64,000 nucleotides of DNA from an uncultured Chloroflexia bacterium (GCA_963741325.1 CAVUHJ010000002.1:59373-123372), one strand, 5' to 3'; counted from the first letter of the stretch, positions 12,063 through 64,000 are shown. The notes: generated by a model not told the origin, from the sequence alone. Numbers and translations are program-made.

Positions 12063-12145
12063 GAGAGCAAGGCGTATATAATAGGAACGGGGAGACCTAC
12101 GATCATATTTCTGTGGGGACAGCCCGCCTGCGCTGTGCGAACGCC
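12063..12145 (+). promoter_or_regulatory. Conserved promoter/leader module (copy 1 of 2)
   Basis: GAGAGCAAGGCGTATATAATA..GGGGAGAC-N18-GGGGACAG; about 70% identical to 18509-18588; sits upstream of the 12182 gene. Confidence 0.4.
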
Positions 12146-15323: not shown

Positions 15324-15408
15324 GCTCGCTACACTCTCTCTCGATCACCAAAGGGACGCTGACAATCAGCGTCCCTTTTCGTATCTACTTAACATCAGTC
15401 AGCAAAAC

Positions 15409-15528
15409 GATTATGGTGTTTAGTCACAGAAACCCCTACCCCGGCTGATTCGCGATCCTCCAAAGAAGAAGAGGATATCTGAAATTTGGGATGTGAACGG
15501 GAAAGCGCCGTTCACATCCCAAATTTCA
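15409..15528. repeat. Dispersed about 110-120 bp intergenic repeat with a terminal 20-bp hairpin (copy A)
   Basis: GATTATGGTGTTTAGTCACAGAAACCCCTACCCC..GAAATTTGGGATGTGAACGG-gaaagcg-CCGTTCACATCCCAAATTTC; the inverted homologue is at 55096-55203. Confidence 0.8.
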
Positions 15529-15562
15529 GGGGATCATTATACAAGGAGAGGGCGAAAGTCTA

Positions 15563-16225
15563 TTATTCGTGTTTCATGCGCTCAGCCAGATTGTGTTTGA
15601 TGGCATAAGTCGCAAGTTCGATGCGGTTAGCCAACCCCAGCTTTTCCAGGATCGAGCTGACATAATTCCGGGCGGTCTTTTCGCTTAGGTTCAGGCTCGC
15701 CGCGATCTCTGCGTTGGTCTTGCCCTGACTGACCTCGTAGAGGACTTCAAGCTCCCGCTCGCTCAGGGCGCGGAATGCATCTTCATCGGCCTTGTGTTCG
15801 GTTTCGCGCACGCGGGCGAGCAGGCGGGTGGTTGTGGCGGCGTCCAGCACCGATCCGCCGCCTGCGGCCGCGCGGATCCCGCGCAGAACCTCCTCGTTCC
15901 CCACCTCTTTCAGGATATACCCTACGGCCCCCGCCCGGATCGCGCCGATGACCAGTTCTTCATCGGCAAAGGAGGTCAGCATGACCACTTTGGTATCCGG
16001 ATATCGGGCCGCGATCTGGCGGGCAGCTTCCAGCCCGCTGTCTCCTGGTAAGCGGATATCCATCAGCACCACCTGCGGGTGGGTGCCCTCCACCATTCGA
16101 AGCGCGGCGGCGGTCGAGTCGCCCTCCCCGACGACCTCCATATCAGCCTGATCGTCGATCAGGGTCTTCAAGCCCAGGCGCACCAGGGCATGATCGTCCA
16201 CCAGCCCAACCCGTATCTTTGTCAT
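15563..16225 (-). CDS. NarL/FixJ-family response regulator (REC + LuxR HTH)
   Basis: Intact 220 aa; ..VGLVDDHALVR..VVLMDIRLPG.. and ..LSERELEVLYEVSQGKTNAEIA.. Confidence 0.85.
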   Translation of the reverse strand: MTKIRVGLVDDHALVRLGLKTLIDDQADMEVVGEGDSTAAALRMVEGTHPQVVLMDIRLPGDSGLEAARQIAARYPDTKVVMLTSFADEELVIGAIRAGAVGYILKEVGNEEVLRGIRAAAGGGSVLDAATTTRLLARVRETEHKADEDAFRALSERELEVLYEVSQGKTNAEIAASLNLSEKTARNYVSSILEKLGLANRIELATYAIKHNLAERMKHE

Positions 16226-18508: not shown

Positions 18509-18588
18509 GAGAGCAAAGCGTATATAATAACCACAGGGAGACTTAAGGTCACATCTCGGCGGAGACAGAGCGGGAGGTCTGCAAAACC
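18509..18588 (+). promoter_or_regulatory. Conserved promoter/leader module (copy 2 of 2)
   Basis: GAGAGCAAAGCGTATATAATA..AGGGAGAC-N18-GGAGACAG directly upstream of the 18593 ATG. Confidence 0.4.
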
Positions 18589-22635: not shown

Positions 22636-22759
22636 ATCTGGGGCGCACGAACCTACAAACCACGTATGTTGAAGGCTCTCCCCAACCTGCCTGTGGATAA
22701 AACAGAACAGGCGTGCTACAATTTACGATTAACTACTCACCCCCCGTTGCTCGATTCCC

Positions 22760-22809
22760 CGGAAAATGAATATGGGCAGGGGAGAACACCCGCCCATATT
22801 CATTTTCCG
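22760..22809. repeat. 18-bp perfect-stem hairpin
   Basis: CGGAAAATGAATATGGGC-14 nt-GCCCATATTCATTTTCCG, intergenic. Confidence 0.8.
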
Positions 22810-22931
22810 AAGGTGCAGGTGTACTCCTTGCGCGGGATCTCTTTTCCCATTCCGTGATAACGGAAGGGGAAAAGCTAAAGGTACGTGAGTAGATACATTT
22901 ACGAATTATTTTTTACCGTTAGGAGTCACCC

Positions 22932-29804: not shown

Positions 29805-30150
29805 TCCCTCTGAGAGCGATTCTGGAAGAGATACCGCTTCGCGTCCAACTGGAGAGGCGAGCCTGTTTCATCCCATTTGAGGCGCTAATCGCAACCGAGA
29901 ATAGCGCTTAAGGCAGCAGAGCTCGCCTCGTTCTGTCAGCTTTGCTTGCTCCAACCACAAGCAACGAAATATGTTCATCGGGGCTATGGTCGAGGGCGGG
30001 ATCAACCCGGGCCGTAAACCACCGCGGGGCACTTACATACTGGTGCGACGATGTTCAAGTCGGCATTCCCGGATTTATAAACGAAGCCGGGCTTTCCACC
30101 CGCCGAGCGGGGCCAACCAGCAAATGCATAAACAGCAGCAGTATAACGGT
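29805..30150 (-). pseudogene. 5'-truncated copy of the lysK 3' end with its own stop and downstream flank (middle copy)
   Basis: Encodes ..[38 protein letters not shown].. versus authentic ..[38 protein letters not shown]..; about 80% nt identity by eye over about 150 nt. Confidence 0.65.
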
Positions 30151-32963: not shown

Positions 32964-34137
32964 AGAAAGAACAATTTTTTCTATATTGAACATCAGTGAA
33001 GGCTGCTGCATCGGCTCTACAGGGATCACAGTAGAAACAGTGGAAACAGCAGCCGAAATGCAGTCAATTGCTCCAACATTTGAGATCGAATCATCTGGCC
33101 GAGCCAGCCTCAGCGCTTCCGCCAGCACCGCAACAGCTTTCTCGTATTCTTCCAGTGAAATATGTTCATCGGGCGTATGGTCGAGAGCGGAATCGCCGGG
33201 GCCGTAAACCACCGCGGGGCACTTCCATACCGGCGCGACCAGGTTCAAGTCGGCGGTGCCGGACTTATACACGAAGCTGGGCGTCCCACCTTCTGAGCGA
33301 ATGGCGCTGAGCAGGGCGCGCACCAGCGGCGTATTCTTCTCACAGGCCCAGGCAGGGACGGCATAGCCGCGCCGTTCTACTACTCGCACCGGCCGCGATC
33401 TCGCTCAACTTGGTATACCAATCCTCCGGCGATACATCCAGAGGCAAACGGGTGCCGATGTGCAGCTTTGCCCATTGCTCGAAGCCGTCCGCACCGGACT
33501 CGAGGCCTCGCAGCGTGGGCAGGATCTTATCAAAGGCCCGGGGTTTATTCCCATTGAATGAATCCGCGTAGGCTTTGACCGCCAGCCACAATTCAACTGC
33601 GTCCTCGCAAGCCGTCTGCTCGCCGCTGGAGGAATGGGCCTGCGCGCGCTTGACCGACAACCTGCGCCCAGGCGCTGCCTTTATACCCAAGCGAGATCCT
33701 GTCCCAGCGGTTGGGTTCACCCACGATGGCAAGGTCCGGCTTGTAGCGTGAAACCACATAACGCGCCCCATCCGAATCACGTTCTTCTTCCACCGCACCG
33801 ATCACGACCATCTGCCACCCGCCACCAAGCCGACTTGCGCGACCGCATCTACAAAACACGCCAGCGGGCCTTTGGCATCCACGGAGCCGCGACCATACAG
33901 GTTCCCCTCTTCCACGCGGACAGGGATCTCTCCCGGCACCGTGTCTATGTGCCCGAGCAATACGATCTGCCTGGGGCCCGTTCCCATCAGGCCCACTGCG
34001 TTACCGGCTTCATCCACAAATGCATCCGAGTAATGCAGCGCCTTCATGCGCTCCACCAGCCAGTCAGCCGCATCGCGCTCGCTCCCCGAAGGACTGAAGT
34101 GCTCCACGAGGCCGGTCAGCGTGGCGGCATCATTCAT
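32856..34137 (-). CDS. lysK: [LysW]-lysine hydrolase / acetyl-ornithine deacetylase family (M20); frame broken at least 3 times; the last about 45 codons look like read-through
   Basis: [67 protein letters not shown]; operon position after lysJ (8-nt overlap). Confidence 0.75.
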
Positions 34138-41803: not shown

Positions 41804-42000
41804 TGCTGTTTTGGAAAATCTTTTTTGAAATTCTAAACTGATTGGCTGCTCTTTTGGCAGCCGAATCCCGATCCGCATTTAGAGTTGGGCTGTTTATGTT
41901 TGCATAGATGATCCTGTCAGCCTCAGAGAGTCTCTTAAGTCTTTGCTGCCTTCTATTTTGAACGCGGATTTCACAGACAAATAAGGATTTTTTTTCAAGA

Positions 42001-42045
42001 TTTTCCGCGTAAATCCGTTAAATCCGTGTTATCCGTGTACAAATC
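42001..42045. repeat. CCGCGTAAATCCG-type short repeat cluster
   Basis: TTTTCCGCGTAAATCCGTTAAATCCGTGTTATCCGTGT; related strings at 45731-45770 and 55310-55355. Confidence 0.6.
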
Positions 42046-49354: not shown

Positions 49355-49522
49355 CCGGTTCGCACTTGCGCTGATGATCAGACTGGTCGCGCGCGTCAGT
49401 TTCATCTGGACTGAAGTTCGCACGAAGTATACCTGCACCTTCGGTGTCCGGGGAACCGAAGGGACAGTAGTATACCTACAGTCACTATCGGACATTAACC
49501 TTAAGGCAATCGAGCAGCTCTC

Positions 49523-50206
49523 ATGGCAAAAATCCTTGTGATAGACGACGAACCCTCCATTGTAAATCTCGTAACCGCCTACCTCAAACCGGAAGGCTAC
49601 GAGGTGCACACTGCCATTGACGGGCAATCGGGTCTCAAAGCCGCGCGCGCTTTCAAGCCCGACCTGGTTATCCTGGATATCATGCTGCCCGGCATGGACG
49701 GGTTGGAGCTGCTCTCACGCTTGCGCCGCGAATCAGAAGTGTACGTGATCCTGCTCACGGCCAAAACCGAGGAGACCGATAAGATCGTGGGCCTCTCGGT
49801 GGGAGCGGACGATTACGTGACCAAACCCTTCAGCCCCCGCGAGCTGACGGCGCGCGTCAAAGCGGCGCTCCGGCGCATCCAAACCCCCGCCGCTTCAGGC
49901 TCCGGGATGAGCGTATTGTCTTTCCGCCATCTGCGGATGGATACCGGCGCGCGCAAGGTCAGCGTGGATGAGAAGCCGGTTGATCTGACCGCCGTCGAGT
50001 TCGATCTGCTGAAGGCGCTCGCGGAAAACCGTGGGCGAGTGGTAACACGCGAACAACTGCTGGAAAAAGTCTGGGGTGGGGAGTATTTCGGCGAGATGCG
50101 CGTGGTGGACGTGCACCTGGGCCACGTGCGCCAGAAGCTTGGACGTGATGATCTGATCGTCACCGTACGCGGCGTTGGCTATCGCTTCGAAGATGAACCC
50201 CTTTAG
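49523..50206 (+). CDS. OmpR/PhoB-family response regulator
   Basis: Intact 227 aa; MAKILVIDDEPSIVNL..LVILDIMLPGMDG..; winged-helix C-terminus ..VRGVGYRF. Confidence 0.85.
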   Translation: MAKILVIDDEPSIVNLVTAYLKPEGYEVHTAIDGQSGLKAARAFKPDLVILDIMLPGMDGLELLSRLRRESEVYVILLTAKTEETDKIVGLSVGADDYVTKPFSPRELTARVKAALRRIQTPAASGSGMSVLSFRHLRMDTGARKVSVDEKPVDLTAVEFDLLKALAENRGRVVTREQLLEKVWGGEYFGEMRVVDVHLGHVRQKLGRDDLIVTVRGVGYRFEDEPL

Positions 50207-50221
50207 CTATTCCGAGGAATT

Positions 50222-51401
50222 ATGACCGATTACTTCCGTCGTCACTTGGGCGCAAAGCTCTTACTCTCCTACCTGGTCGTCATCGTGGTGGGTGCTGTGG
50301 TGTTGGTCGCTGCCAGCCAGTTCATCCTGCCCGCCTCCTTCAATCGCCATATGGGCGGGATGCTGGGGAGCCCGAACGGTGGGATGATGGGCTTGGGAAG
50401 GCAGGGGTCTGGCGGGCAAGGGTTGGGCAGCGGGCAGGGCTTTGGCAGCCCCACCACAATGGCCCAGCTCTACAACGATTATCGCGCCGGCTTCAACGAG
50501 GCTCTCACCTATGGTGCACTGGCGGCTTTGGTTGTGGCCGTGGCTCTCGGATTGTTTTTCAGCCGTAGTGTGATCGCGCCCGTGGCTGCCATGTCACTTG
50601 CCACACAGCGCATTGCCGACGGGCGCTATGATGAACGCCTGCAGGTGCACGGTGAGGATGAGCTTGCCCAGCTGGCCCTGCGCTTTAATCAAATGGCCGA
50701 AAAGCTCGACCAGGTCGAAGCGATGCGCCGCCGCCTCATCGCAGACGTCAGCCACGAGCTGCGCACCCCGTTGACCGCCATCAAAGGCTCGATGGAAGGA
50801 TTGATGGACGGCGTGCTGCCCGCCGCCGATGAAACCTATCAACAGATCCACAGCGAGGCGGACCGGCTCAATCGCCTGGTGGACGACCTGCAGGAACTCA
50901 GCCGTGTGGAAGCTCGCGCTTATGAGTTGGACCTCCGCCCCGTGGAGGTTGCATCTCTCGCGCGGAGCGTAGCCAAACGCCTCACGCCTCAAGCTCAAAC
51001 AAAGCGCATCTCTCTTGACCTTGAACTGCCTCCCGACCTGCCGCGTATCCTCGCCGACGAAGACCGCCTCATGCAGGTGCTGACCAACCTGACCGGCAAT
51101 GCGCTGCAGTACACCCCCGAAGGCGGCCGCGTCGACCATTTCTGCGAAACGGATCAATGGCGAAGTTGAAATTGCAGTCCGCGATACGGGCATCGGCATT
51201 CCCTCCGAGCACCTGGCGCACATCTTCGACCGCTTCTACCGCGTGGACAAATCCCGCTCACGTCAAGCCGGCGGCGGGAGCGGCATCGGCCTGACGATTG
51301 CCCGCGCGCTGGTCGAAGCGCAGGGCGGGCGCATCCGGGCCGAGTCGGCGGGCGAAGGGCAGGGAAGCACGTTCACGTTTACGCTGCCCATCGCAAAATA
51401 A
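50222..51401 (+). CDS. Sensor histidine kinase (HAMP + HisKA + HATPase); frame broken near 51150
   Basis: H-box ..[15 protein letters not shown]..; N/G boxes ..[18 protein letters not shown].. Confidence 0.8.
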
Positions 51402-51515
51402 AGCAGTGTTTGTTAAATCACAAAACTGAGGGTTGTAAATCAAATCGGGATTTGCTAAAATGAGCCCGCCAAGGTAGGTGCTCTTCGTAAAATATTTATT
51501 TTTTGATCCCTTAAG

Positions 51516-51545
51516 GCCGTCTGTGTCATAACAGATGGCTTTTTG
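51516..51545 (+). terminator. Intrinsic terminator
   Basis: GCCGTCTGT-gtcata-ACAGATGGC (one G-U pair) then TTTTT. Confidence 0.55.
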
Positions 51546-51622
51546 GAAAATCGGGTCAATTGGTTGTTGTTAACCGCTATCTTATCAATTTCTTTCGGGA
51601 AAACCATATCAGGAGAGAGAAC

Positions 51623-54600
51623 CGTGAAGCGAAGAACCGCTCTTGCCCCATTCGTTAAACTCTTTCTTGTCATACTCTTAGCCTCCCTCGGGCTTCAAGC
51701 CGCCGCAGGGGCCGGGATGGCCGCGTCTGTTCAGCCGCAGCCCTCGCTGTCCGTGCCGCTCCAATGCTCGAACAGCATCACGGGCCAATACTGCGACATC
51801 CGCGTGGTGCTGCTGATCGATGATACCGGCAGCATGCGCTTTAACGACCCATCTTCTATGCGGGACCAGGGCGCCAAGAACCTGGTGGATATCCTCGTCG
51901 CAGGAGTATTACCAGGTCGCGCGTGGACGCGAAGACCGTTGACCCAACCGTGGTGCTGCCCGATATCAAAGTGGCGGTGCTCCATTTCAGTCACTGCATC
52001 TCCACGGATCCCCTGGACCACTGCAGCTCGGACGTGAAATACAACTCCGGCTGGCTGCCTATAACACAAAAAGACCAGCTTTACACGGCCATCGATTGGC
52101 TGAAGACCCAGCCGAATTATTATCGCGTAAGCCAATACACGCATTTCATCGAGCCCTTCCAGGCGGCGAGCGACCTGTTCAACGACCCGGCTGCCGGCTC
52201 GAGCAACAGCTGCGTCCATCGCATGATGCTCCTGTTAACCGATGGGACACCGGAGGACATCCACGGTCCGCTGGCCGAGCCTGCCCTGGGGAATGAAATG
52301 CAGCAGGTGAAAACCAGCCTGCAGGGCTTCCTGTCGCAGTCGGAAAACAGCCTGTACGTAACCGCCTTCAAGATCGTCCCCAAATACTGGCAGGCCACGC
52401 AGCCCTATTGGCAGGACATTGCCGGAGACCCGGGCACGTGTCGCTGGAAAGCTCACTGGACGGGGTGACCAGCCGCATGGAAAAGATCGTGACCTCCATC
52501 ATCGGCGCGGTGAGCAATACCATCCCTCCCGACTCGAGCGACCCGCGGCTGTATAAGGTGCGAGGTGCTGCACCATGTCAACTCGCTGCGCCTCACCTAC
52601 TATAAGCTCGACCCGACCGCCAGCCTCACGCTGACCGACCCCCAGGGGAAGGCGGTTGTCCCGGATAACACTACCGTCACGCAGAGCGGCAAGGGGACCG
52701 CCATCGAAGTCTGGACGCTGATCGATCCGCTGGCCGGCATCTACCAGGTTAAAACCTCTTCAATTGACGGGACCATCACCACCATCCCGCGCTACGCCGT
52801 GAGCGCGCAGCTTGAAGCGCCCACCGAGGCGAACCCGCTGCCCGAGTTTACGCAGGGCACAGATCCAGCTCAGCCTGCTGGACAGCCAGGGTGCGCCGGT
52901 GCTGCCGACCGACGACCCCGGCGATACATTGAATTTGGAAGCCAGGCTTACCAACGCGGGTCAAAGCCTGCCGCTGCCGCTCACCGTGAGCGGCGATCAG
53001 TACCAGGCGAGCTGGATGCCGCTGTCTACCGATGCGGTCCAGCTGCATGTAAGCCTTGAACTGAAAGACGCAAATAACAACTCACTCTGGAAATGCAGCG
53101 GTGACACAGGCAACCTGCCGGTTGACCAGGTATCGGTATTGGCCGAACCTCCGAGTGAATGCACGCCTGTCAATACAACGCTGAGCGTGCCTCTGCAAGT
53201 GGTCAATGTGCGGACAGGCCAAAGCACAGGGATCGGCTTGCCGATTCAATGGCAGGTGGCATCAGTTACTCAGCCCGGCGGAAAAGCAGTCCCTTCCTCG
53301 GTGGATGTGGTGGACGCCGCGACGGGTGTATACCAGCTGACCCTCAAGCCGGTCATACCGGAGAATATCCAATCGCATGTGACTGCCAGTGTCCTCCTAA
53401 ACGGCCAACCCTTGGCGGCGTGGTCGTACGATCAGAACATCCCGATCAGCGTCTGCACTCCGCAGCCGACGCCGCCGCCCGTGCCCGAACAGCTGCAGCG
53501 GGCAATGGGATTATCTGTTCTGGGCGCTGTTGATCCTGCTGCTGCTCCTGCTGTTGACCGGGCTGGTCCTCCGTAAAGAGGAACGCAAAGAGCAGAAGAG
53601 AAATTTACATTCATCGTTCTGGATGCTCCTGATCCTGATCCTGCTGCTGATCGGGCTGTGGCGGTTCTTGTGCTTCGATGTCTCGCTCTGGCCGCTCTTG
53701 ATCCTGCTCCTCATCCTGCTGTTGTTCGTGCTGCTGGTGCGAGTCCTCTCCGGGGATGACGATGACAGGTCACGCCGCTTGGAGCTGGATCCTCGTGATC
53801 CTGTTGGTCCTCCTGATGCTGCTCTGGCTGATATTCTTCAGCGGCTTTTGGATTTACCTTGCCATGCTGCTGCTCGTCCTGCTGATCATGCTGCTGGTGA
53901 TCTGGCTGCTCGCGCGCGCACAGGAATGAAGATGAACCCGTGCCCTTCTGGCTGTTGCTGAGACTGTTGGTCCTGCTCGTGTCGTCTGGGTTGGTCTTCT
54001 TTGGCGGTTTCCCCGGCTGGCTGGCAGTGGTCCTGGCGCTGATCTGGCTGGTGGTCCTGCTTTGGTTGTGGCTCATGTACGAGGAGAGGGATTGGAGAAC
54101 ATCCACCAACTCATGGCTTTTGATCTTCGTCTTCCTCGTGCTGGTGGTCATCTGGTTGGTCTATTTCAGCACCTATTGGCTGTACCTGACCGGGCTGCTG
54201 GTCTTCCTGCTGTTGATCGGGCTGGCTGCATGGACTCTCTATCGCTACAGCAATCCCCTGTGGGGCGTGATCGGCATCGTCGATCGGAGGAACCGCCTGC
54301 TGTGGAGCGCCTCGCTGGCTGACCCTGAAAGATCGGTGGCAGGTCGTACTATGATTGGAAGTTCAAAGAACGGATCGGCGGCGTAAAGCGTCTCCGCATC
54401 CACTCCTGGGACAGGCGCAGGCATTGGCTGGTATTGAGAGTCACATTGATCGAGGGCAAGCGCACCTTCAAGCGCAGCCTCGAGCACTGGCAGGACTGCG
54501 AGCTGGAAGACGGCTTCCGCATCATCTGGCTGGAGAAGGCTCCCCGAACCGAAACGGCCTCCGCAGCGCAAGCCTCGCAAACCGGCTCCGGGGACGGGCG

Positions 54601-55022
54601 GTAAAAAGCGTGCCCAAAGCTACGACATCGCAGAGGTCGAAGGCATCGGCCCTGCCTATGCCGCGCGGCTGAGGAAATTAGGCATCCATACGACCGACGA
54701 ACTGCTGAAGGTGGCCGATTCCCGCAAAGGCCGGCAGGTGCTTTCCGAAAAGAGCGGCTTCTCCGTCGAGCGGATCCTGGAATGGGTGAACCGCGCCGAC
54801 CTGATGCGCGTGCCTGGCGTCGGTTCGGAATACAGCGACCTGCTCGAAGCGGGCGGCGTGGATACGGTGAAAGAGCTTCGCCGTCGCAACGCTGAAAACC
54901 TCTATAACACGCTCCGCAGGGTCAACCAGAGGAAGAAGCTGGTTCGTCGCCTGCCCGACCTGGAAGAGGTACAGGCCTGGATCGCCTCCGCCAGGAAGAT
55001 GAAAACGCTCGTAACGTATTGA
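51623..55022 (+). CDS. About 1130-aa composite protein: signal/anchor, vWA domain, beta-sandwich repeats, nine Leu-rich TM helices, small cytoplasmic domain, DUF4332-like C-terminus; frame broken about 9 times (could be 2 genes)
   Basis: GTG after AGGAGAG; ..VVLLIDDTGSM.. and ..LLLTDGTPED.. (vWA MIDAS); TM array 53500-54240; ..YDIAEVEGIGPAYAARLRKLGIHTTDELL..VPGVGSEYSDLLEAGGVDTVKEL.. Confidence 0.55.
53515..54235 (+). repeat. CTG-rich quasi-repetitive coding block (tandem Leu-rich TM modules)
   Basis: Recurrent GATCCTGCTGCTGCTCCTGCTG-like strings; nine helices of type (F/S/Y)W.LLILLL.. Confidence 0.6.
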
Positions 55023-55037
55023 AATAAGACACTTACT

Positions 55038-55224
55038 AAAGATGTTTTGGGAGTTCTACGCCTTTTCAAAAACGAGCAAAGCGGGTCCTGATCTCAATTT
55101 TGGGATGTGGACGGTGCTTTCCCGTTCACATCCCAAAATTAGGAATCCTCTCCTCCCCTAAAGGGGAGGTGGGGTGGGGTCTCTGTGACTAAATACCAAA
55201 ATCCTTATCTCGAGCTAATGTTAA
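55038..55224. repeat. About 185-bp non-coding insertion flanked by TAA; core 55096-55203 is the inverted homologue of 15409-15528
   Basis: Absent from the otherwise homologous site at 58622-58631; contains hairpin AATTTTGGGATGTGGACGG..CCGTTCACATCCCAAAATT. Confidence 0.6.
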
Positions 55225-55229
55225 ATAGA

Positions 55230-55267
55230 AACAGGCTTCGGTGTGAAGAACAACCACCGAAGCCTGT
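55230..55267 (+). terminator. Hairpin terminator of the DUF4332-type gene
   Basis: AACAGGCTTCGGTG-11 nt-CACCGAAGCCTGTT then CTTATTT. Confidence 0.55.
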
Positions 55268-55309
55268 TCTTATTTCAGAAAAAAAATACTATTTCTTCGT
55301 TCTTTCTTC

Positions 55310-55355
55310 AAAAAAAATCCGCGTAAATCCGTCTCGTCCCTGTTTTTCCGCGTTC
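55310..55355. repeat. ATCCGCGTAAATCCG-type short repeat
   Basis: AAAAAAATCCGCGTAAATCCGTCTCGTCCCTGTTTTTCCGCGTTC. Confidence 0.55.
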
Positions 55356-55385
55356 TATTCTCCGCCGTTCACTGCCACCCTCACA

Positions 55386-55890
55386 TCATAATACCGGGTG
55401 TTCAACCGCTGTTTGTTCGCCGCTCTGCTCCGACTTTTTCTTTACCACATTCGTCAGGGCGCTCAGGCCGCGTGCAAGCGCGCTCAAATCATCATCGCTC
55501 AGGTTAACCAGCCAGCGCTGCCACTGTTTCTCGCGCTCGCTTGCGACGTCCTTCACCGATCTCTGCGCCCTGCTCGCTGAGAGTCACCACCGTCTGGCGT
55601 CGATCGGTCTCATGCTCCGTGCGGACCACGAGGCCGCGCGCCACCAGTTGCTGCACCAGGATACTGGCCGTGGGGTTCCCAACGCCCAGCATGCGCGCCA
55701 GCTGGCTGACGGTCATGGCCTTGTTCGCCGCCAGGATGATCACAGCCCTGGCCTGCGCAAACGTCAGTTCGAGCATCAGCCAGTGCGAGACCGCATTGAA
55801 CTGCATGATCACGAACAAATCCATATAGGCCTGCACGATCGCGCCGACGAGTTGGGGCCGGCTTTGCGCCGTATTTTTCACGGGTTTCAT
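55386..55890 (-). CDS. MarR-family transcriptional regulator; frame broken near 55570
   Basis: ..LTFAQARAVIILAANKAMTVSQLARMLGVGNPTASILVQQLVARGLVVR..; natural C-terminus recovered in the next frame; ATGA overlap with the upstream gene. Confidence 0.75.
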
Positions 55891-58458
55891 TTCGGCTCCT
55901 CCGCTTTCAGGACCAGGCCGCGCGAGCCATCCACCCTGATCCATTGTCCATCTTGCAGCTGCCGCGTGCCGTTTACCGTGCCCATCACCGCCGGTACGCC
56001 GTATTCACGGGCCACGATCGCGGCATGCGAAGCAGAGCCTCCGGTATCCACGACCACCGCCGCCGCATGCTGGAAAAGCGGCGTCCAGGCCGGGTTGGTG
56101 ACCGGGGCCACCAGCACATCCCCTTGCCGCAATTTTCCGAACTCGGAAGCATCCAGTATGATCCGCACCGGGCCGCTTGCCATGCCCGGGCTGCCCGATG
56201 AACCGCTTAAAAGCACATCCTGCTCCCTGCCCTTCCGCGGAGCGAGGGCCAGCAAGCGCGGGTCCACCATCGGCGTATCCCCCAGCGATTTGCGCTTGGC
56301 TTTGCGGCGTGAAACAAGCTCTCTGATCCGGTCAATGGTATGGGAAGGCAGCGGCCACGTGTCGCCTACCGATTTAAGCTCTTCCAGCCGCAAATGAAAT
56401 ACATCCGCTGCCGTCTCGAGCGCGCCGGCCTTTTCCAGGCGCTGACCGAGTTCGAGGGCCATGTGCCGGATGGGCGGCTGGGATAACGTCAAATAGAAAT
56501 GGGTGTCCTCGCGGATTTGAAAAAGTGCACGCGCATTGCCCAGCGACTTCAGGAACAGGTTGCGGAGGGCCTTCGTGCCCAGCATCGAATGTGCCAGTAA
56601 CTCGTCCCGTGCCCGCTGCCAGGCTCCGTTATTTTGCTCCTGCTTTGGCCCCACGCTCACCAGCACTTTCAAAATCCCGAGCACGATCTCGGGTTGATCC
56701 TTCCAGGCCGGTTCTGAAATCGTGAGCACCGTCTCGCGGTGGCCGTATCGATCCAGGAAATTATCGAGGTCCTTCAGAAAAGCCTGCCCTGCCGGTGAGC
56801 CCTTTAGGACCGATCCTAATTCGCGCACCTCATTCCGGGCAAATGCCTCTCTCAGCCCCGCGTCAAACCGGGCCTGCCTGGCCAACGCCTCCAGCGCCAG
56901 GTTGGTTTCCGTCGTCTTGGTCTGTACGCCCGAGACCAACTCGCTAAAGGCTAGCCCCGCGGCCCGCCAGCTTAAGCAGCATCCATAACAGTCCCAATCC
57001 CAGGAGCGCCTGGGGCAGATACAGCTCGCGGACCTTCATGCCGCGCGGGATCAGGCCCAGCGCCTCATGCAGCGCCTCGATATTCTGCGCCCAGGTCAGC
57101 GATCCCGGGTTCAGCCCATCGAGTTCGTTCACCCCGGTTATATACTCACGCAATAACGGGTCGGCTTCCCAGCGTGACGGGTCATAATGGCGCGTCCGCC
57201 ACAGGGCAAGCAGGGGATTGATGATCACCAGCGGCGACGGATAGAATTTGGGTGGTTGGAAGCGCACCACCACGCCCTCCTCCTCAAACAAGGCCTCGTC
57301 CGGGTTCGGCGCATCCTTGCCGATCATGGCGGTCAGCAGATTGCCGATACTGCGTTCCACTGCGCCTGTAAAAGTCGTCACGTCCAGCGGATAGGGACGC
57401 ACCGGCCACATCTCCGCCAGCATGGGGACGATCAGCCGCATCGCTCCGGTGACTTTCAGAGGCCTCGGCAAAGCAGTGATCGGCCGCGCCTGCAGGATAA
57501 AGAACTTCCCGGTTGTACGGGTTTCCTTGATCCATGCCCATTCGATATCCTGGTATTTGCGGTAAAACGTCTCGATCTTGACCCCCAACTGCGCAAGCTT
57601 TTTGATCTCTGATTTGGGTAGGGCCGCCTCGCCCACCGCTGAATGATCCGACGTGACTTGCTCGGTACCGCCCCCGGCTTTGGCGCGCACGATCACCTCC
57701 CGCCTGCCGGAAGTCTGTTCCTTGATGCGCTTTGTGCGCTTCTCGACCACGTAATGATCCGGCGTGACCGCGCCGCTCACCACGGCTTCGCCCAGCCCCG
57801 GGTTCGCGTCGATCACCACCACGTTCAGCAGGCCGCTGACCGGGTCCGCGGTGAACATCACACCGGCTGCATCGGCCGGGACCATGCGCTGCACCACCAC
57901 CGCCAGTTTAACGGACGCCTGGTCTACATTTTGGTGAGCACGGTAGAGGATTGCGCGCTCCGACCACAGCGACGCCCAACAACCGCGCACCGCTTCGAGC
58001 AGCGCGGGTTCGCCGATAACATTCAGGAAGGTTTCCTGTTGTCCGGCGAAGGCGGCTTCAGGCAGGTCTTCCGCGGTCGCACTCGAACGGACCGCGACCC
58101 CGTCACCGCCCAGCCGCTGATAAGCCTTCATGACCTCATCGGTTATCTCTGGCGGAAGCGGGACATGCTCGAATAGGTCGCGGATGTCCTGGCTGATCTT
58201 TGCCAGCGCTTCGGGCTGGTCGGGTTGGAGGGCAGCGACGAAAGCCTCCAGGCGGGAACGCAGGTCCTTGTCCTGCAAAAGCAGGTCATAAGCGGCTGTG
58301 GTAATGACAAAGCCGGCCGGTATGTCGAACCCTCCGCGTGATAACTCGCCCAGGTTCGCGCCTTTTCCACCTGCCAGCAGCAGATCGTTGTGCCCAAAAC
58401 GGGAAAGCGGCGCGACGAGAGGGCGGCGAAGGCGATCGGATAGATTTGCAAGAGACAT
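55887..58458 (-). CDS. PEP-utilising enzyme with rifampin-phosphotransferase-like architecture (PPDK_N ATP-grasp + central domain + swivel His domain); frame broken near 56940
   Basis: ..LLAGGKGANLGEL.., ..VRSSATAEDLPEAAFAGQQETFLNV.., C-terminal ..VVDTGGSASHAAIVAREYGVPAV..; about 855 aa total. Confidence 0.7.
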
Positions 58459-58569
58459 GCTTCACTCCGAAGATTTAATATGAGATGGAACGACTTGCTT
58501 ATATTGATTTATATTACCAAAATGGTTTGATTTTGTCAAACTATTTTATTATGAGAATATAAATTGATA

Positions 58570-58685
58570 GCCTCGGCAAGGAAAATGAAAACGGTCGTAA
58601 AGTATTGAAATAAGATACTTGCTTATAACGAATAGGCTTCGGCGTGAGGTTCAACCACCGAAGTCTGTTATCTTAGAAAAAACAA
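58570..58685 (+). repeat. Relic copy of the last about 18 codons, stop and terminator hairpin of the DUF4332-type gene
   Basis: GCCTCGGCAAGGAAAATGAAAACGGTCGTAAAGTATTGAAATAAGATACTTGC versus 54985-55037 (about 87% by eye), then hairpin AATAGGCTTCGGCG..CACCGAAGTCTGTT. Confidence 0.7.
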
Positions 58686-58882
58686 TTATCATGAAGATGA
58701 GTAGATGTGGTCGGGATTATAGGAATGGTGTAAAGATGGGGTTAAATAAGGGGAGGGCTAGGGGCGGGCTCCAGCGTGCATTTCATATCACACCCGATTA
58801 TTGTGATGAACATACGCCAGCTCTTATTGCTAATTATCGGCCCCTGCGCACTATGTTAGCCCGTTCATGTCAACTCGAGTTG

Positions 58883-59578
58883 CTATTTTTCGATAAAGAT
58901 TCGGTCAAACAATGGGCTGGAGATATCTGCTCCAGAATAACCATCATATATTTCATAATATAACTGAGATGAACTAATTACACCAGGAATTGTTCCAGAA
59001 AGTTTTATAACATCTCCTTCTATATCTACTTCGATTATTCCATCAGAAATTTTCTTCTCTGACGCGCCGTTTAATTCACTAACGCTAACTTGCATTCCTT
59101 GTTCGATCGGCATGGCTTTTGAAGTACCACTAGACTTAAAATGCGCTGCCCATAAACAATAATCTGCCCCGGCTAACCATCCTAGCGATGCTCCTGTATT
59201 CTTGTCATTATCAGTGTCAATGCAAATTTTCCACATATACTCAATACTACCTGTGACCACGCCGCTTTCTTTATCAAAAGTTAATTCTGTAGGCACATCT
59301 TTCAAATAGAAAATAGCAGTTACTGAATCGTTTTTCACATCTATTCTAACGTCCATAGGGTCAAATACTGGATTGCTCATGTCACCGTAAGGAGCGGGAA
59401 AAGTAGATAATGGAGCAGGTGTTCCAGTAGGAATTAAAGTTGCTGTAGAAAGAGGGGTATTTGTAGGCGCAATTGTAGAAGTGGGCAGTGTAGTTCGCGC
59501 AAGAGTGGCCGTTGCTGGAACACCACATGCAGAGAGAATCAGGACCAATGCTGCAATAGTCAGTATGTATTTATTCAT
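58883..59578 (-). CDS. Lipoprotein, function unknown, low GC (about 38%)
   Basis: MNKYILTIAALVLILSAC lipobox; Thr/Pro linker; beta-rich domain. Confidence 0.5.
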   Translation of the reverse strand: MNKYILTIAALVLILSACGVPATATLARTTLPTSTIAPTNTPLSTATLIPTGTPAPLSTFPAPYGDMSNPVFDPMDVRIDVKNDSVTAIFYLKDVPTELTFDKESGVVTGSIEYMWKICIDTDNDKNTGASLGWLAGADYCLWAAHFKSSGTSKAMPIEQGMQVSVSELNGASEKKISDGIIEVDIEGDVIKLSGTIPGVISSSQLYYEIYDGYSGADISSPLFDRIFIEK

Positions 59579-59848
59579 TCTTTTAATCTCCTTGAGGGCT
59601 AGCTGCTTTAGCAACCGTCTACTGCGCGGTTTGGTAGACCACTTTTGAACTTAATCTTACATCATAATGGTAGCTTATAGCTGTATCTCGAAAGACGCCT
59701 GGCATAAGCCTGGATTTGATCCCCGCTCTCAATCCCAGTTCAAGGAAGTCTGTTGCGAGCCGGCTCGGTCACGTGAGAGTGATCGAACCACGCAGCACCA
59801 GGGCCTTGTGATGATCCGACCTGTTCCTGGCACGGTATAATGTTTTTT

Positions 59849-60108
59849 GAGTCGAAAACAAACACACATCCCAAGGGTCATCCGGGAGGCAGAGTGGAGA
59901 GTTCTTTTCCAACCTCGGGCCCGGTTTAATTTCCGGGGCAGCCGATGATGACCCTTCCGGGATCTCAACCTACTCTGTGGCCGGGGCAACTTTCGGCTAT
60001 CTGCCTCTATGGATGGCGCTCTTTTCTTATCCATTGACAGCTGCATTGCAATTGATGTGCGCGGTTTTGGGCATGGGTAACCGGGCGGGGCCTGGCGGGC
60101 GTGATACG
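59849..60108 (+). pseudogene. 3'-truncated copy of the 5' end of the Nramp gene (about 85 codons)
   Basis: Encodes ..GPGLISGAADDDPSGISTYSVAGATFGYLPLWMALFSYPLTAALQLMCA..; about 88% nt identity by eye to 61187-61448. Confidence 0.7.
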
Positions 60109-60275
60109 ACTTCTTGCTGACGATCCTACAGAGCCGCCGCGCGAGAGTCTGTAAAGCGACCCGTTTACAACTTTAGAGAATCTGTTATGCTTGAGACGCG
60201 CCTAACTACCTCGCTGCGCAATTGCCGCGAGCATAGGGCACTGGTTCCATTATGCATGAGTATTGAGGTGGTGGG

Positions 60276-60918
60276 ATGAGATTGCCAAAGCATGTCGGCG
60301 TGATTCCAGATGGAAATCGAAGATGGGCGCAAGCCAGACGTCTGGCCAAAGGCAAAGGATACGCGAACGGGTTGGACTGGCTTTGACCTTCCTTAAGCTG
60401 GCCCAAACAGCCGGGATCAAGGAGCTGACGGTCTACGGGTTTACCATGGAGAACAACAGGAGACCACCGGTACAGAGAAAAGCGTTTACAGACGCCTGCA
60501 TTCGTGCAGTGGATCTTCTTTCCAGAGAGGATGCGGAGCTGTTGGTAGTTGGGAATACGGATTCACGCTTCTTCCCGAAAGAATTGCTTCCTTACACTTC
60601 CGAGCGAAGGACCTTCGGCGATGGAGGCATAAAGGTTAATTTTCTGGTGAACTATGGATGGGAATGGGACTTGGACAAGTTGAAAACGGCCGATCCCACG
60701 CGCACAAATATCATGGATCACGTGCAATCTTCTAGATTTCCAGGATAGATCTCATTATTCGCTGGGGAGGCAGGAGCAGGTTGAGCGGTTTTCTGCCCGT
60801 GCAGTCTATTTACGCCGACATTTATGTTGTGGATGAATTTTGGCCGGATTTCGAACCGGAGCATTTTTTCCGGGCTCTGAAGTGGTACACAAAACAGGAT
60901 ATTACGCTTGGCGGCTAG
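60276..60918 (+). CDS. cis-prenyltransferase (undecaprenyl-diphosphate synthase family), short paralogue; frame broken near 60385 and 60745
   Basis: [18 protein letters not shown].. and ..[35 protein letters not shown].. Confidence 0.7.
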
Positions 60919-61168
60919 GGCTATCGTTGAGGCACAGGGCCCTACAGAGCTATATATATTCATGTGTATTATACGAATGTCAAAAGAACCGATTTTCGCC
61001 CGATTGAGAGCTTACGAAGGCATGAGGACATACCGCGAACGTGCTCGGCTGTGTATGTTGGTATTTCGTTCTACGGAAGCTAAGGAACATGATCGTGGAT
61101 TTTGACAGGTGAGGTCAAACGGTATCATTAAAGCGTAAACGCGGCTGGCTGTAAATTTCAAATGACAT

Positions 61169-62476
61169 ATGGATAAATCAAACACCGAGTTGAAAACAAA
61201 CACGACATCCCAAGCGGCATCCGGGAGGAAGGGTTGGAGAGTTCTTTTCCAACCTCGGGCCCGGTTTAATTACCGGCGCCGCCGATGATGACCCTTCCGG
61301 GATCTCCACCTACTCCGTCGCCGGGGCAGCCTTCGGCTATCTGCCGCTGTGGATGGCGCTCTTTTCTTTTCCATTAACGGCTGCACTGCAATTGATGTGC
61401 GCACGTCTCGGCCTGGTGACCGGGCGAGGCCTGGCGGGCGTCATACGCCGTTATTATCCGCGCTGGGTGCTGTGGGGAGCTTGCTCGCTGTTGATCGTGG
61501 CGAATGTGTTCAACATCGGCGCCGACCTGGGCGGGATGGCGGCAGCCACAGCCCTGGTCACGGGGGTCAAGTCATTTTACTGGACGCCCATTTTTACGGC
61601 GGTGATCATTCTGGTGCTGATTTTCTCCTCCTACCGGCTCATCGCAAAGATCTTCAAATGGCTGACGCTCGTGCTCTTTTCTTATATTCTGACGGCTTTT
61701 CTGGCTCAACCCGATTGGGGCGCGGTCCTGCATGCCACCTTTATTCCGCAGGTTTTATGGTCCAGCGCGTTCCTTGCGGCTTTTGTCGGGATCCTCGGCA
61801 CGACCATCAGCCCCTATCTTTTCTTCTGGCAGGCCTCCCAGGAAGTCGATGAAGAGAGAGCACAGGGCAAGACGACGGTCGCCAGACGCAAAGGCGCAAC
61901 GGATGAGGAATTGCGTATTGCCCGGACCGACGTTCTGGTCGGGATGTTCTTTTCCAACCTGGTGATGTACTTCATCATCCTGACGACTGCCGCCACATTA
62001 CATGCTCACGGCAGTACCGATATCCAGACCGCACAACAAGCGGCGCTGGCTTTGCGTCCACTGGCCGGCCCGTGGGCTTATCTTCTCTTCACGATCGGCA
62101 TCATCGGTACGGGCATGCTGGCCGTTCCGGTCCTGGCAGGCTCCGCCGCCTACGCCATCACCGAAGCGGAGAAATGGCGTGGAAGCCTGGAATCCCGGCC
62201 CAATGTAGGCGAAGCGATTTTATGCCGTCGTGGCGGTTTCGATGCTCCTGGGGCTGGCTCTTGGATTTTGTCGGGTTCAACGCGGTCAGGATGCTTTTTT
62301 ATTCGGCGGTTCTCAACGGTGTTCTGGCCCCGCCCCTGATCGTCCTGGTCACGCTGCTGACGAGCAACCCCAAAGTCATGGGCAAGCGTGTCAGTCCGCC
62401 TCTCCTGCGTTATTTGGGTTGGGCCACGGCAGCCATCATGGCCATCGCAGCCATTGGAATGTTCTTAACGCTGTAA
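61169..62476 (+). CDS. mntH: Nramp-family divalent metal transporter; frame broken near 61204 and 62220
   Basis: ..GPGLITGAADDDPSGISTYSVAGAAFGY.. DPGN-type motif region; 11-12 TM. Confidence 0.7.
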
Positions 62477-62613
62477 GGAATCCGAGGGCCTCGCCGTCCC
62501 AATCTACAATCATCAATCTACAGGGTACTGCGTAATTATCTAAACCAACGCCCTGATTTTTGCCCTACAAATGATCAAAACCAGTTTAGACATTTATGCA
62601 AGAAGCAGTAAAA

Positions 62614-63306
62614 TCAAAAATCCTTCCGCCCGTTCTTTCTCAGCCACTTGTTGTACTCCTTGTAATCCGGCAGTATCTTTTCCACCTTCTTCCAAAATCG
62701 TTTCGAGTGATTATGGACGGCAGTGTGTACCAGTTCATGGATGATCACAGAGTCAACCACATCGATCGGGGTCAGGATCAAGCGCCATGAGAAGCTAAGG
62801 TTACCGGTCGGGCTGCACGAGCCCCAGCGTGTCCGGGCCGAGCTGATGCGGATCTTCCCATATTGAAAATCGTATCTTGCGGCGAACAGGGCTGCGTGCT
62901 CGCCTATGATCTGCCGGGCCTGCTTCCGATACCAATCCTGAAATGCCTGTCCGGCATTCCCCTGCGCCCCCTCTGCAAGTTTGAAATTACCATCCAGCCA
63001 CAAAGGCTTCTTCTGGCCTTTTACTATTTCGAGCGCATAGGGCTGACCCAGGTAAAGGAAGGTCTCACCCGGGATGTATTGTTTGGCCGGGGAGGTAACC
63101 ACGACACGCGCCTGCGCCTGCTTTTTCTCGATCCACAATGCGTGGCTGTCCACAAACTCACGGATCGTTTTCTCGGGAGTCCGGAGAGGCGTGCGGACGA
63201 TCAACGAACCGTCGTTCTCGACGATCAACGTCAGAGTCCTGCGTTTACTGCGAATGAGCTGGTTGATCTCAACCGGCATTTTTATATCTTCGTTTCTGCT
63301 GTACAT
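62614..63306 (-). CDS. YgjP-like (DUF45/M48-type) metal-dependent hydrolase
   Basis: Intact 230 aa; ..RTRWGSCSPTGNLSFSWRLILTPIDVVDSVIIHELVHTAVHNHSKRFW.. HExxH. Confidence 0.7.
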   Translation of the reverse strand: MYSRNEDIKMPVEINQLIRSKRRTLTLIVENDGSLIVRTPLRTPEKTIREFVDSHALWIEKKQAQARVVVTSPAKQYIPGETFLYLGQPYALEIVKGQKKPLWLDGNFKLAEGAQGNAGQAFQDWYRKQARQIIGEHAALFAARYDFQYGKIRISSARTRWGSCSPTGNLSFSWRLILTPIDVVDSVIIHELVHTAVHNHSKRFWKKVEKILPDYKEYNKWLRKNGRKDF

Positions 63307-63314
63307 TAACTGGT

Positions 63315-63416
63315 GTCATTGCGAGCCGCCGTTCTTGTTTTTGGCGGCGTGGCAATCTCAGAATGCATTCAAGTACGAGATTGCTTCGTCGGGAAGAGCA
63401 CCCTTCTCGCAATGAC
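63315..63416. repeat. GTCATTGCGAG..CTCGCAATGAC palindromic repeat (copy R3)
   Basis: GTCATTGCGAGCCGCCGTTCTTGTTTTTGGCGGCGTGGCAATC..GAGATTGCTTCGTCGGG..CTCGCAATGAC. Confidence 0.8.
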
Positions 63417-63432
63417 AACCAATGGATGCAAG

Positions 63433-64000
63433 TTATTTCCTATCCTTGTGCGCAACATCGATGGCAGCTTTCAAATGCTCCCAGGGAGTTTCGCTGGGCA
63501 CCGTGCAGTCCGCCGCCAGCATGAAGCGCTCGGGCGCCTCTGCCAGGACATCTGTTGCGGCCTTGCGGACCGCATCCAGGCTGCCGGTGGCGATCGTGCC
63601 TTTGCGTTCCAGCCCGCCCATGAAGGGCCGCCCGAACATCTGCGAGGCTTCTTTGGGGCTCATGGTCCGTTCGCCCAGCTTCAGGCTGCAGTTGACCATC
63701 TGGCCGGGATAATCCAGGAAGGGCGTCAGGTCGTCGTACCCGCCGTTGTAGTCGCAGACGTGCAGGATGTTGAACGGATCGTTCTTGATCTCGGCCCACA
63801 CCGTCAGGTCGGTGGGCTTGATGTACTTCTGGAAGATGTCGGTGCCCTTGAAACGGAAGGCTTCGCCGCCCTGGGTGGACACATAGAACCCGTCCACACC
63901 GGCGCTGCTTGCAGGCGCGCACCAGGGTCACGACGTTTTCGGTCAGGATCTCCAGTCCCTTTTTCACGGCCTCGGGATTTTCCTTCAGATGCGCGGCCAG
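63433..64000 (-). CDS. Uroporphyrinogen-decarboxylase-family protein (MtaA/CmuA-like), 5' end outside window; frame broken near 63900
   Basis: ..GVDGFYVSTQGG..HVCDYNGGYDDL..MLAADCTVPSETPWEHLKAAIDV.. Confidence 0.55.

Follow-up and report, generated by a model that had tools for sequence, protein, structure and literature searches.

We analysed a stretch of 64 kilobases (kb) from an uncultured Chloroflexia bacterium (GCA_963741325.1 CAVUHJ010000002.1:59373-123372), referred to here as the window, with all coordinates counted along its whole length. The locus of interest is a two-gene operon on the minus strand, which consists of a phosphoenolpyruvate (PEP)-utilising enzyme with the architecture of a rifampin phosphotransferase (RPH; 55887..58458) and a MarR-family regulator (55386..55890), and which faces a large convergent gene with a DUF4332 domain on the plus strand (51624..55022). 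The 3' end of the DUF4332 gene, together with its terminator, is present twice, once in place (copy A) and once on the far side of the operon (copy B, or the relic), and the two copies enclose solely the MarR and enzyme genes. An earlier note on this DNA had pointed to this bracket, and its description of direct repeats, of a second copy without a gene body and of a two-gene minus-strand operon between them was borne out.

The limits of the DUF4332 gene were set by tblastn with the intact 1132-amino-acid (aa) protein of its orthologue on contig L001, part of a metagenome-assembled genome of an uncultured Chloroflexia. The match covers 51624-55019 in frames 3/2/3/1/2/3, and at least five frame changes break the gene into several open reading frames (ORFs) here. 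Pfam DUF4332 matches the C-terminal 134 aa (4e-42), and copy A is the true 3' end of this gene. Its first block (54976..55037, plus strand) runs from the final codons (..WIASARKMKTLVTY) through the stop codon (55020-55022) into the spacer. The second block (55223..55285) is a strong hairpin between the convergent DUF4332 and MarR genes, with folding energies of -27.4 kcal/mol on the plus and -29.5 kcal/mol on the minus strand (z about -7.8) and U-rich tails on both strands, and is probably a bidirectional terminator. Stop codon and terminator are separated by an insertion of 190 nucleotides (nt; 55038..55227, plus strand). The insertion is an intergenic element of a dispersed type and contains a hairpin with 19-nt arms (55096-55140); it is missing from copy B, where the short ancestral spacer is kept, and from both copies in L001 and in a second related contig, L008. 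Another copy of the element (hairpin AATTTTGGGATGTGGACGG...), 78% identical, was seen on the minus strand at 15370-15570.

Copy B recurs at 58564-58685 and holds the last 14-15 codons of the DUF4332 gene, its stop codon, the spacer and the terminator hairpin. It is made up of a coding relic on the plus strand (LIASARKMKTVVKY*, 58564..58608) and of the spacer with a weakened hairpin (58609..58685, the hairpin itself at 58634-58669), which folds with -17 kcal/mol on the plus strand (z -2.4) and -14.5 kcal/mol on the minus strand (z -1.35). The reading frame is shut by a TGA at 58552-58554, 11 codons 5' of the relic's ATG, and at most 14 codons are open; the duplicate is real, and the length of about 18 codons given for it earlier was too long. 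There is no gene body upstream of copy B, and the objection named in the earlier note, that this segment might be the 3' end of a real gene, does not apply. The two copies are collinear direct repeats. By repeat scan and pairwise alignment, 54980-55037 and 58566-58623 are 86% identical over 58 nt, and 55230-55268 and 58631-58669 are 85% identical over 39 nt, both ungapped; the whole unit is 76% identical with gaps counted. The longest exact run, judged by eye from the alignment, is about 14-17 nt. Degenerate patterns derived from copies A and B matched just those two sites in the 64 kb and had no match in 100 shuffles. An Rfam search of 54-64 kb (E <= 0.1) had no match, and neither the relic nor the repeat associated with the Nramp gene further downstream is a known RNA.

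Neither gene of the operon is a single ORF as the sequence stands. The enzyme, previously taken as one protein of ~855 aa, is read in two parts of 504 and 350 aa, owing to a frameshift of 1 nt within the C4/G4 run of 56955-56958, and reaches 856 aa only after removal of one base of that run; an exact-sequence look-up of the 504-aa ORF returned no record. The MarR gene has a 1-nt frameshift near 55537-55550 and encodes 167 aa once this is removed. A position at GAGATCGG was considered for the latter frameshift and ruled out, as the intact proteins of L001 and L008 put it nearer GCGAGCGCGAG. With intact proteins of a relative, tblastn over 49500-64000 found one frame change each in the histidine kinase, UroD, MarR and enzyme genes, besides those in the DUF4332 gene. 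In L008 the same genes are broken in frame at other positions, and in L001 they are unbroken. Because the neighbouring genes are frameshifted too, the frameshifts are most probably errors of sequencing or consensus in a long-read metagenome assembly rather than gene decay. Same-strand overlapping ORFs elsewhere in the window suggest further frame changes.

The repaired enzyme has the order ATP-grasp domain (about residues 1-333), central helical domain and C-terminal His swivel (DTGGSASH), and the RPH-type architecture ascribed to it earlier proved correct. Pfam places PPDK_N at 28-331 and PEP-utilizers at the C-terminus (777-847), and the homologues carry the Rph_4th domain. As a structural proxy we used the AlphaFold2 model of P0001, an 85% identical homologue encoded on L001 (mean predicted local distance difference test score 80.8), whose secondary structure fits the three-domain order. 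In Foldseek searches with this model, the Listeria RPH (RPH-Lm; PDB 5FBS/5HV1, matched as 5HV1) was the best and the sole full-length match among solved structures (E 1.5e-40), and the structures of pyruvate phosphate dikinase (PPDK) reached E-values of 1e-9 or worse. The same alignments give 21-26%, about 25%, identity between the proxy and RPH-Lm. In the swivel, DTGGSASHAAIVAREYG aligns with GGLMTHGAVIAREYG of RPH-Lm; the catalytic His of this GGxxSH loop is the equivalent of His825 and is invariant in 36 homologues. The invariant pair R649-E650 (P0001 numbering) aligns with R666-E667 of RPH-Lm, the Arg-Glu of block 9. In RPH-Lm, Arg666-Glu667 position the phosphate and His825 is the phospho-carrier (Stogios et al., PMC4844700). 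Lys670 of RPH-Lm is replaced by an invariant His, the motif reading REDTH (P0001 649-653) against REYPK. Many further residues of the central domain are invariant and could define the clade of this enzyme.

These shared features would favour a true RPH and hence, with its regulator, a rifamycin-resistance cassette; the family-level evidence goes the other way. Against the Listeria RPH, the family profile can be aligned in the ATP-grasp domain and in roughly the 330 C-terminal residues, whereas its positions ~340-520, the equivalent of the arm and apex subdomains with the rifampin pocket (Gln336/337 block), cannot be aligned to RPH-Lm. All NCBIfam scores of the enzyme lie under their cut-offs. 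RIF_Ptrans_rph (NF041857) gave 414.8 bits against a cut-off of 999, the alignment covering only model positions 3-313 and 548-861, NF000283 gave 292.9 against 1700, and PRK06241.1-3 gave 507 against 945. The validated RPH clade is >42% identical to RPH-Lm, and in more distant clades the phosphotransfer residues are retained while the substrates are probably different, one member having given no rifampin resistance (PMC4844700). With a score of 415 against 999 bits, about 25% identity, Lys670 changed to His and no alignable rifampin site, the identification as an RPH antibiotic kinase could not be upheld.

The enzyme is not a housekeeping PEP synthase either. It shares with PpsA and PPDK homologous ATP-grasp and swivel domains, for which 8A8E is the best sequence match, but has no Pfam match to the PEP/pyruvate-binding domain (PEP-utilizers_C), the C-terminal TIM barrel of those enzymes, and its swivel is C-terminal instead of central; these two features argue against a PEP synthase. 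The PpsA models also scored below cut-off (NF005057, 454.5 against 598; TIGR01418, 436.3 against 739.75). The prodigiosin-condensing enzymes PigC, RedH and HapC have the same fused three-domain architecture, but the NCBIfam scores of 359 bits (the PigC model) and 356 bits fall far below the cut-offs of 1300 and 1350, and the locus has no pigment-biosynthesis context. Our own reading, from the sequence and the model together, is that of a putative fused small-molecule dikinase of the RPH superfamily which falls outside the RPH family proper.

Within the superfamily, HpeHI, CreHI and PpsAB are two-component phenolic dikinases, PpsAB being the phenylphosphate synthase (PMC12167813). The swivel-His dikinase chemistry with release of AMP and inorganic phosphate (Pi) would be common to them and to the window enzyme, whose ATP-grasp domain is matched by HpeI (PDB 9GOJ) at 31% identity, and their phenolic substrates are of the kind of ligand often sensed by MarR regulators. 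In contrast to the window enzyme, which is fused and stands alone with its regulator, they consist of two polypeptides and belong to catabolic clusters; no carboxylase or other downstream catabolic gene lies near the window locus. The enzyme is pictured as taking the beta-phosphate of ATP onto the swivel His, with AMP and Pi as products, after which the swivel would carry the phosphate to the central helical domain and the Arg-Glu pair would help to pass it to a hydroxyl of a small molecule, possibly an antibiotic, a xenobiotic or a phenolic. The substrate is most likely one other than rifamycin.

The regulator has a MarR winged-helix domain (Pfam MarR_2 PF12802, 1.3e-13; MarR PF01047, 7.7e-11) and shares 78-79% identity with its intact 167-aa counterparts in L001 and L008; its ATG overlaps the TGA of the enzyme gene (ATGA). 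Upstream of the enzyme lies a promoter on the minus strand (58511..58539; TTGACA, a 17-nt spacer and TG-TAATAT), with 10/12 consensus positions and an extended -10, and its sequence is kept in L001, L008 and L015. The -35 hexamer and the spacer are overlapped by a 29-nt palindrome, AAAATAGTTTGA-caaaa-TCAAACCATTTT (58519..58547, minus strand), which we take as the putative MarR operator. Its 21-nt core occurs once in the window, with 0 occurrences expected by chance, and is found exactly upstream of the enzyme gene in L001, L008, L014/L021 and L015, five other enzyme-MarR loci. L014 has an extra small gene between palindrome and enzyme, and in L016 the palindrome is degenerate. The co-occurrence of the palindrome with MarR lends comparative support to autorepression, and the arrangement suggests that it acts through this promoter-overlapping site. 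A MarR dimer on the palindrome, across the -35 hexamer, would keep the operon off; release of MarR by a small-molecule ligand would let the strong sigma-70-type promoter drive the 856-aa dikinase and the translationally coupled MarR on the minus strand. As predicted here, the system resembles autoregulated MarR repressors in its winged helix, in the inverted repeat over the -35 hexamer and in co-transcription with the presumed target.

Enzyme loci without MarR (L002, L004, L005, L017) were seen to carry another palindrome, CATGACAATTGTCATG, in the form ATGACATTTGTCAT in L017. In L002 and L005 the genes that come after the enzyme encode a small membrane protein, a DinB-like protein and a HisKA_3/LuxR two-component pair, an indication that this enzyme family is also regulated in a second way. 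The small proteins encoded 3' of these distant homologues (L002, L004, L005) were considered as MarR candidates and rejected, being membrane proteins. Actinobacterial RPH enzymes are linked to the rifamycin-associated element. The window enzyme differs from RPH in its adjacent MarR, and a literature search returned nothing specific on a MarR-RPH pairing or on RPH in Chloroflexi.

Homologues of the repaired enzyme, ~855 aa long and 62-68% identical, number in the thousands; where a source is named, it is an Anaerolineales or Chloroflexi metagenome bin. Enzyme-MarR pairs are present in seven other metagenome contigs without a DUF4332 gene nearby (enzyme 63-66%, MarR 60-74% identical), MarR beginning there where the enzyme match ends; two of the seven, L014 and L015, were checked for flanking repeats and had none around the pair. 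The orthologues of the DUF4332 gene in L010-L013 (59-71% aa identity) have unrelated genes downstream, among them an extracytoplasmic function (ECF) sigma/anti-sigma pair and copper and cytochrome genes, and the operon is absent; contig L009 stops too soon after its DUF4332 gene for the downstream neighbours to be judged. A scan of the genome collection with the 1132-aa DUF4332 protein found only the L001 contig and no further species. Since the pair occurs elsewhere and is absent beside distant DUF4332 orthologues, it is a conserved unit found in varied places, its adjacency to the DUF4332 gene being clade-specific. Among close relatives both available genomes (L001 and L008) have insert and relic, which are missing only at identities of <=71%.

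L001 and L008 are independent Chloroflexota assemblies with the same layout as the window, in the order DUF4332 gene, terminator, MarR, enzyme, promoter, relic, and with enzymes 85% identical at the aa and 87% at the nt level. In L001, the copy of the end of the convergent 1132-aa DUF4332 gene lies directly upstream of the enzyme promoter. Window and L001 share a syntenic backbone that extends from UroD/YgjP as far as a pair of histidine kinase and response regulator genes; a variable segment starts exactly at the relic hairpin, and the DNA directly past that hairpin differs in all three genomes. In the window, 58700-59700 has a guanine-plus-cytosine (GC) content of 40% against ~60% in the flanks; the 243-aa protein encoded there is without a match in Pfam and bears a signal of the lipoprotein type (..LILSAC). 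An assembly artefact, in which two strain haplotypes were joined in series, would sit well with the many frameshifts, typical of an uncorrected long-read consensus, and with the several short direct repeats of 84-90% identity in the window. We give it hardly any credence: the two other assemblies come from other samples and show the bracket with lineage-specific changes, by which the artefact is effectively refuted.

In L001 and L008 the relic starts from one and the same junction, CCCCC(A/T)GTAACGC, directly past the promoter, and this shared 5' breakpoint argues for a single event in the common ancestor. The L001 relic includes ~28 nt more of the coding sequence and has lost 39 nt by an internal deletion, the L008 relic retains the segment lost in L001 and is split by a 1.7-kb insertion, and the relic of the window is the shortest of the three. 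(The insertion, at 14660-16340 of L008, carries an AbiEii toxin gene and small ORFs.) These extents point to an ancestral event that would have duplicated the last ~40 codons of the DUF4332 gene with the stop codon, the spacer and the terminator hairpin.

Over the unit common to the three genomes, identities between copies A of different genomes are 0.80-0.83 and those between copies B are 0.68-0.75; copies A and B share 0.74-0.76 within a genome and 0.71-0.79 between genomes. At four-fold degenerate sites of the enzyme gene, the window and L001 are 72% identical. As the identity between relics is close to this value, the relics drift at about the neutral rate, and the relic hairpin has weakened in two of the three genomes (to -17 kcal/mol in the window, against -27.4 for copy A, and to -13 to -17 kcal/mol in L001). 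The distance between copies A and B is about the divergence since the lineages split, which argues that the two arms were near-identical at an event shortly before that split. Gene conversion between the copies, considered as their last 44 coding nt looked very similar, was ruled out by the equal A-B identities within and between genomes. A divergent donor, suggested by the mostly synonymous differences between A and B, was also dropped, since the A-B divergence is of the size built up after the split and purifying selection on copy A explains the pattern.

The cassette-like, recent insertion implied by the earlier note does not agree with these data. The same bracket and breakpoint are found in two relatives, the relic decays neutrally, the operon has a GC content (~0.59-0.645) that matches the flanking DUF4332 gene, and no recombinase is enclosed. 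The note had itself set out, as evidence against its proposal, an enzyme that groups with housekeeping PEP synthases and is syntenic in relatives; synteny was found in part, L001 and L008 sharing the bracket, and the PEP synthase part was not. The layout recalls attL/attR elements, or gene ends left by a single crossover, in that direct repeats of a 3' end flank the insert and one of them completes the gene while the other is truncated. Unlike an integrative element, it has no integrase or other recombinase gene and no identical core (the repeats being 76-86% identical), the insert is only 3.5 kb, and the bracket is fixed and decaying in three genomes. A rifamycin-resistance cassette inserted as a mobile unit, with the repeats as its insertion signature, could further appeal to the absence of the pair beside distant DUF4332 orthologues, to its presence in other contexts and to two other repeat-bracketed segments in the window; the pairs in L014 and L015, which lack repeats, the native GC and the lack of an enclosed transposase or recombinase speak against it, and together with the weak fit to RPH they make it improbable. 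As far as the comparison of these sequences goes, the bracket is an ordinary old recombination scar that predates the split of the three lineages, and no recent mobile resistance cassette.

Two kinds of event could have left this scar. One is a 3.6-kb tandem duplication of a resident operon, with one end near codon -40 of the DUF4332 gene and the other a little 5' of the operon promoter, followed by deletion or replacement of the second operon. It accounts for arms that were near-identical at the event, for the native GC and the lack of mobility genes, and for the DNA past the relic hairpin, which differs in the three genomes and would therefore have been replaced repeatedly. It needs two steps, with a deletion that must begin near the relic terminator, and no genome with two copies of the operon was found among the loci examined; we hold it tentatively, as a real possibility. 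The other is a Campbell-type integration, in which a circle carrying the operon and the last ~200 nt of the DUF4332 gene would have entered by a single homologous crossover. This would give exactly the observed order of intact gene, insert and 3' fragment with a sharp 5' junction by the promoter, and the operon is not beside the gene in outgroups; the near identity of the arms at the event, deduced from the A-B divergence, and the other gene-end brackets of the window also agree with it. The donor, however, must already have had the operon beside the same gene, which only moves the question back, no circular form or empty site was found among the loci examined, and the lysK repeat described below has neither stop codon nor terminator, so that no one simple model covers all the brackets. 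Such an integration is possible, if somewhat doubtful. Both schemes fit the layout, and the present data do not separate them.

Taking operon and bracket together, we consider it probable that the locus is an autoregulated operon of MarR and an RPH-superfamily dikinase, beside an old gene-end scar that decays neutrally. By a single crossover or by tandem duplication with loss of the second operon, the duplicated gene end would have come to lie beyond the operon a short time before the divergence of the window genome from its two relatives, and the relic would since have drifted neutrally and eroded independently in each lineage. Several points weigh against this account. Should the frameshifts in both genes be real, this organism might have no active operon. 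The conserved Arg-Glu pair and His, and the label 'rifampicin phosphotransferase' that JGI attaches to many homologues, may keep rifamycin among the possible substrates. Among the loci examined we found no intermediate, be it a tandem duplicate or an empty site that shares the DNA downstream. Finally, the hairpin of the L008 relic is strong (-33.6 kcal/mol) and contains a compensatory T>G / A>C pair, which hints at some retained function of the relic, at least there. Such a function might be that of a terminator shielding the promoter from the variable region, or of a small transcript or mini-ORF (MKTVVKY) divergent from the promoter region; an AGGA just 5' of the relic's ATG, and an identity of 88-91% between relics over the last 44 coding nt (by eye), would agree with a retained function. 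Over the whole unit, however, the relics are at the neutral level (0.68-0.75), the hairpin is degraded in the window and L001, the L008 relic is cut from the promoter by 1.7 kb, and neither a plus-strand promoter was called nor an Rfam match found at the window relic. We therefore think a functional relic unlikely, and keep to the neutrally decaying scar.

Other repeats were observed in the window. The likeness to lysK drawn in the earlier note is descriptively correct: a piece of this frameshifted M20 peptidase gene, close to its 3' end (33157-33299), recurs at 29966-30109 in blocks of 84-89% identity, the duplicate lying 3.2 kb downstream with PadR, pentapeptide-repeat and ABC-2 transporter genes enclosed and the stop codon outside the repeat. 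The 5' end of an Nramp gene and its upstream DNA are repeated (59850-60110 and 61190-61450, ~90% over ~260 nt), and these repeats enclose a truncated undecaprenyl-diphosphate-synthase-like ORF. A small hairpin element, GAATATGGGCAGGGG...CCCGCCCATATTC, lies at 22731-22813, with related copies 3' of the DUF4332 gene in L009 (6965-7170). There are also short direct repeats at 12063-12122 and 18509-18568 (78% identical) and at 41989-42030 and 55303-55344 (71%), the latter pair sharing CCGCGTAAATCCGT and lying, with its second member, just past the terminator of copy A.

A bolder set of proposals can be built on the same material. The homologues with invariant REDTH in place of REYPK may form a large, uncharacterised clade of RPH-superfamily dikinases in the Chloroflexota, with thousands of members. 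The operon could be a MarR-controlled module that senses and phosphorylates, inactivating a class of antibiotic or xenobiotic for which there is no known phosphotransferase. Separately, the three gene-end brackets (lysK, DUF4332, Nramp) could be the footprints of a recombinase-free insertion of small operons, in which homologous recombination would bring in a circle that carries part of a host gene end. The combination of a REDTH clade acting as a MarR-controlled antibiotic or xenobiotic kinase module with such bracket insertion seems to us rather unlikely.

A duplicated gene end around an accessory-looking operon is by itself no evidence of recent mobility. What chiefly draws attention to the locus is that the enzyme clade is large, uncharacterised and mis-annotated, and that gene-end brackets recur in the window. 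Thousands of such ~855-aa proteins are labelled 'PEP synthase' or 'rifampicin phosphotransferase' by automated annotation, and the present data justify neither label. Where resistome surveys enter these proteins as rph, they would consequently overstate rifamycin resistance in Chloroflexota-rich soils and sediments. The conserved MarR operator offers a simple experimental route to the actual substrate, because the ligand that releases MarR is likely to be that substrate or close to it.

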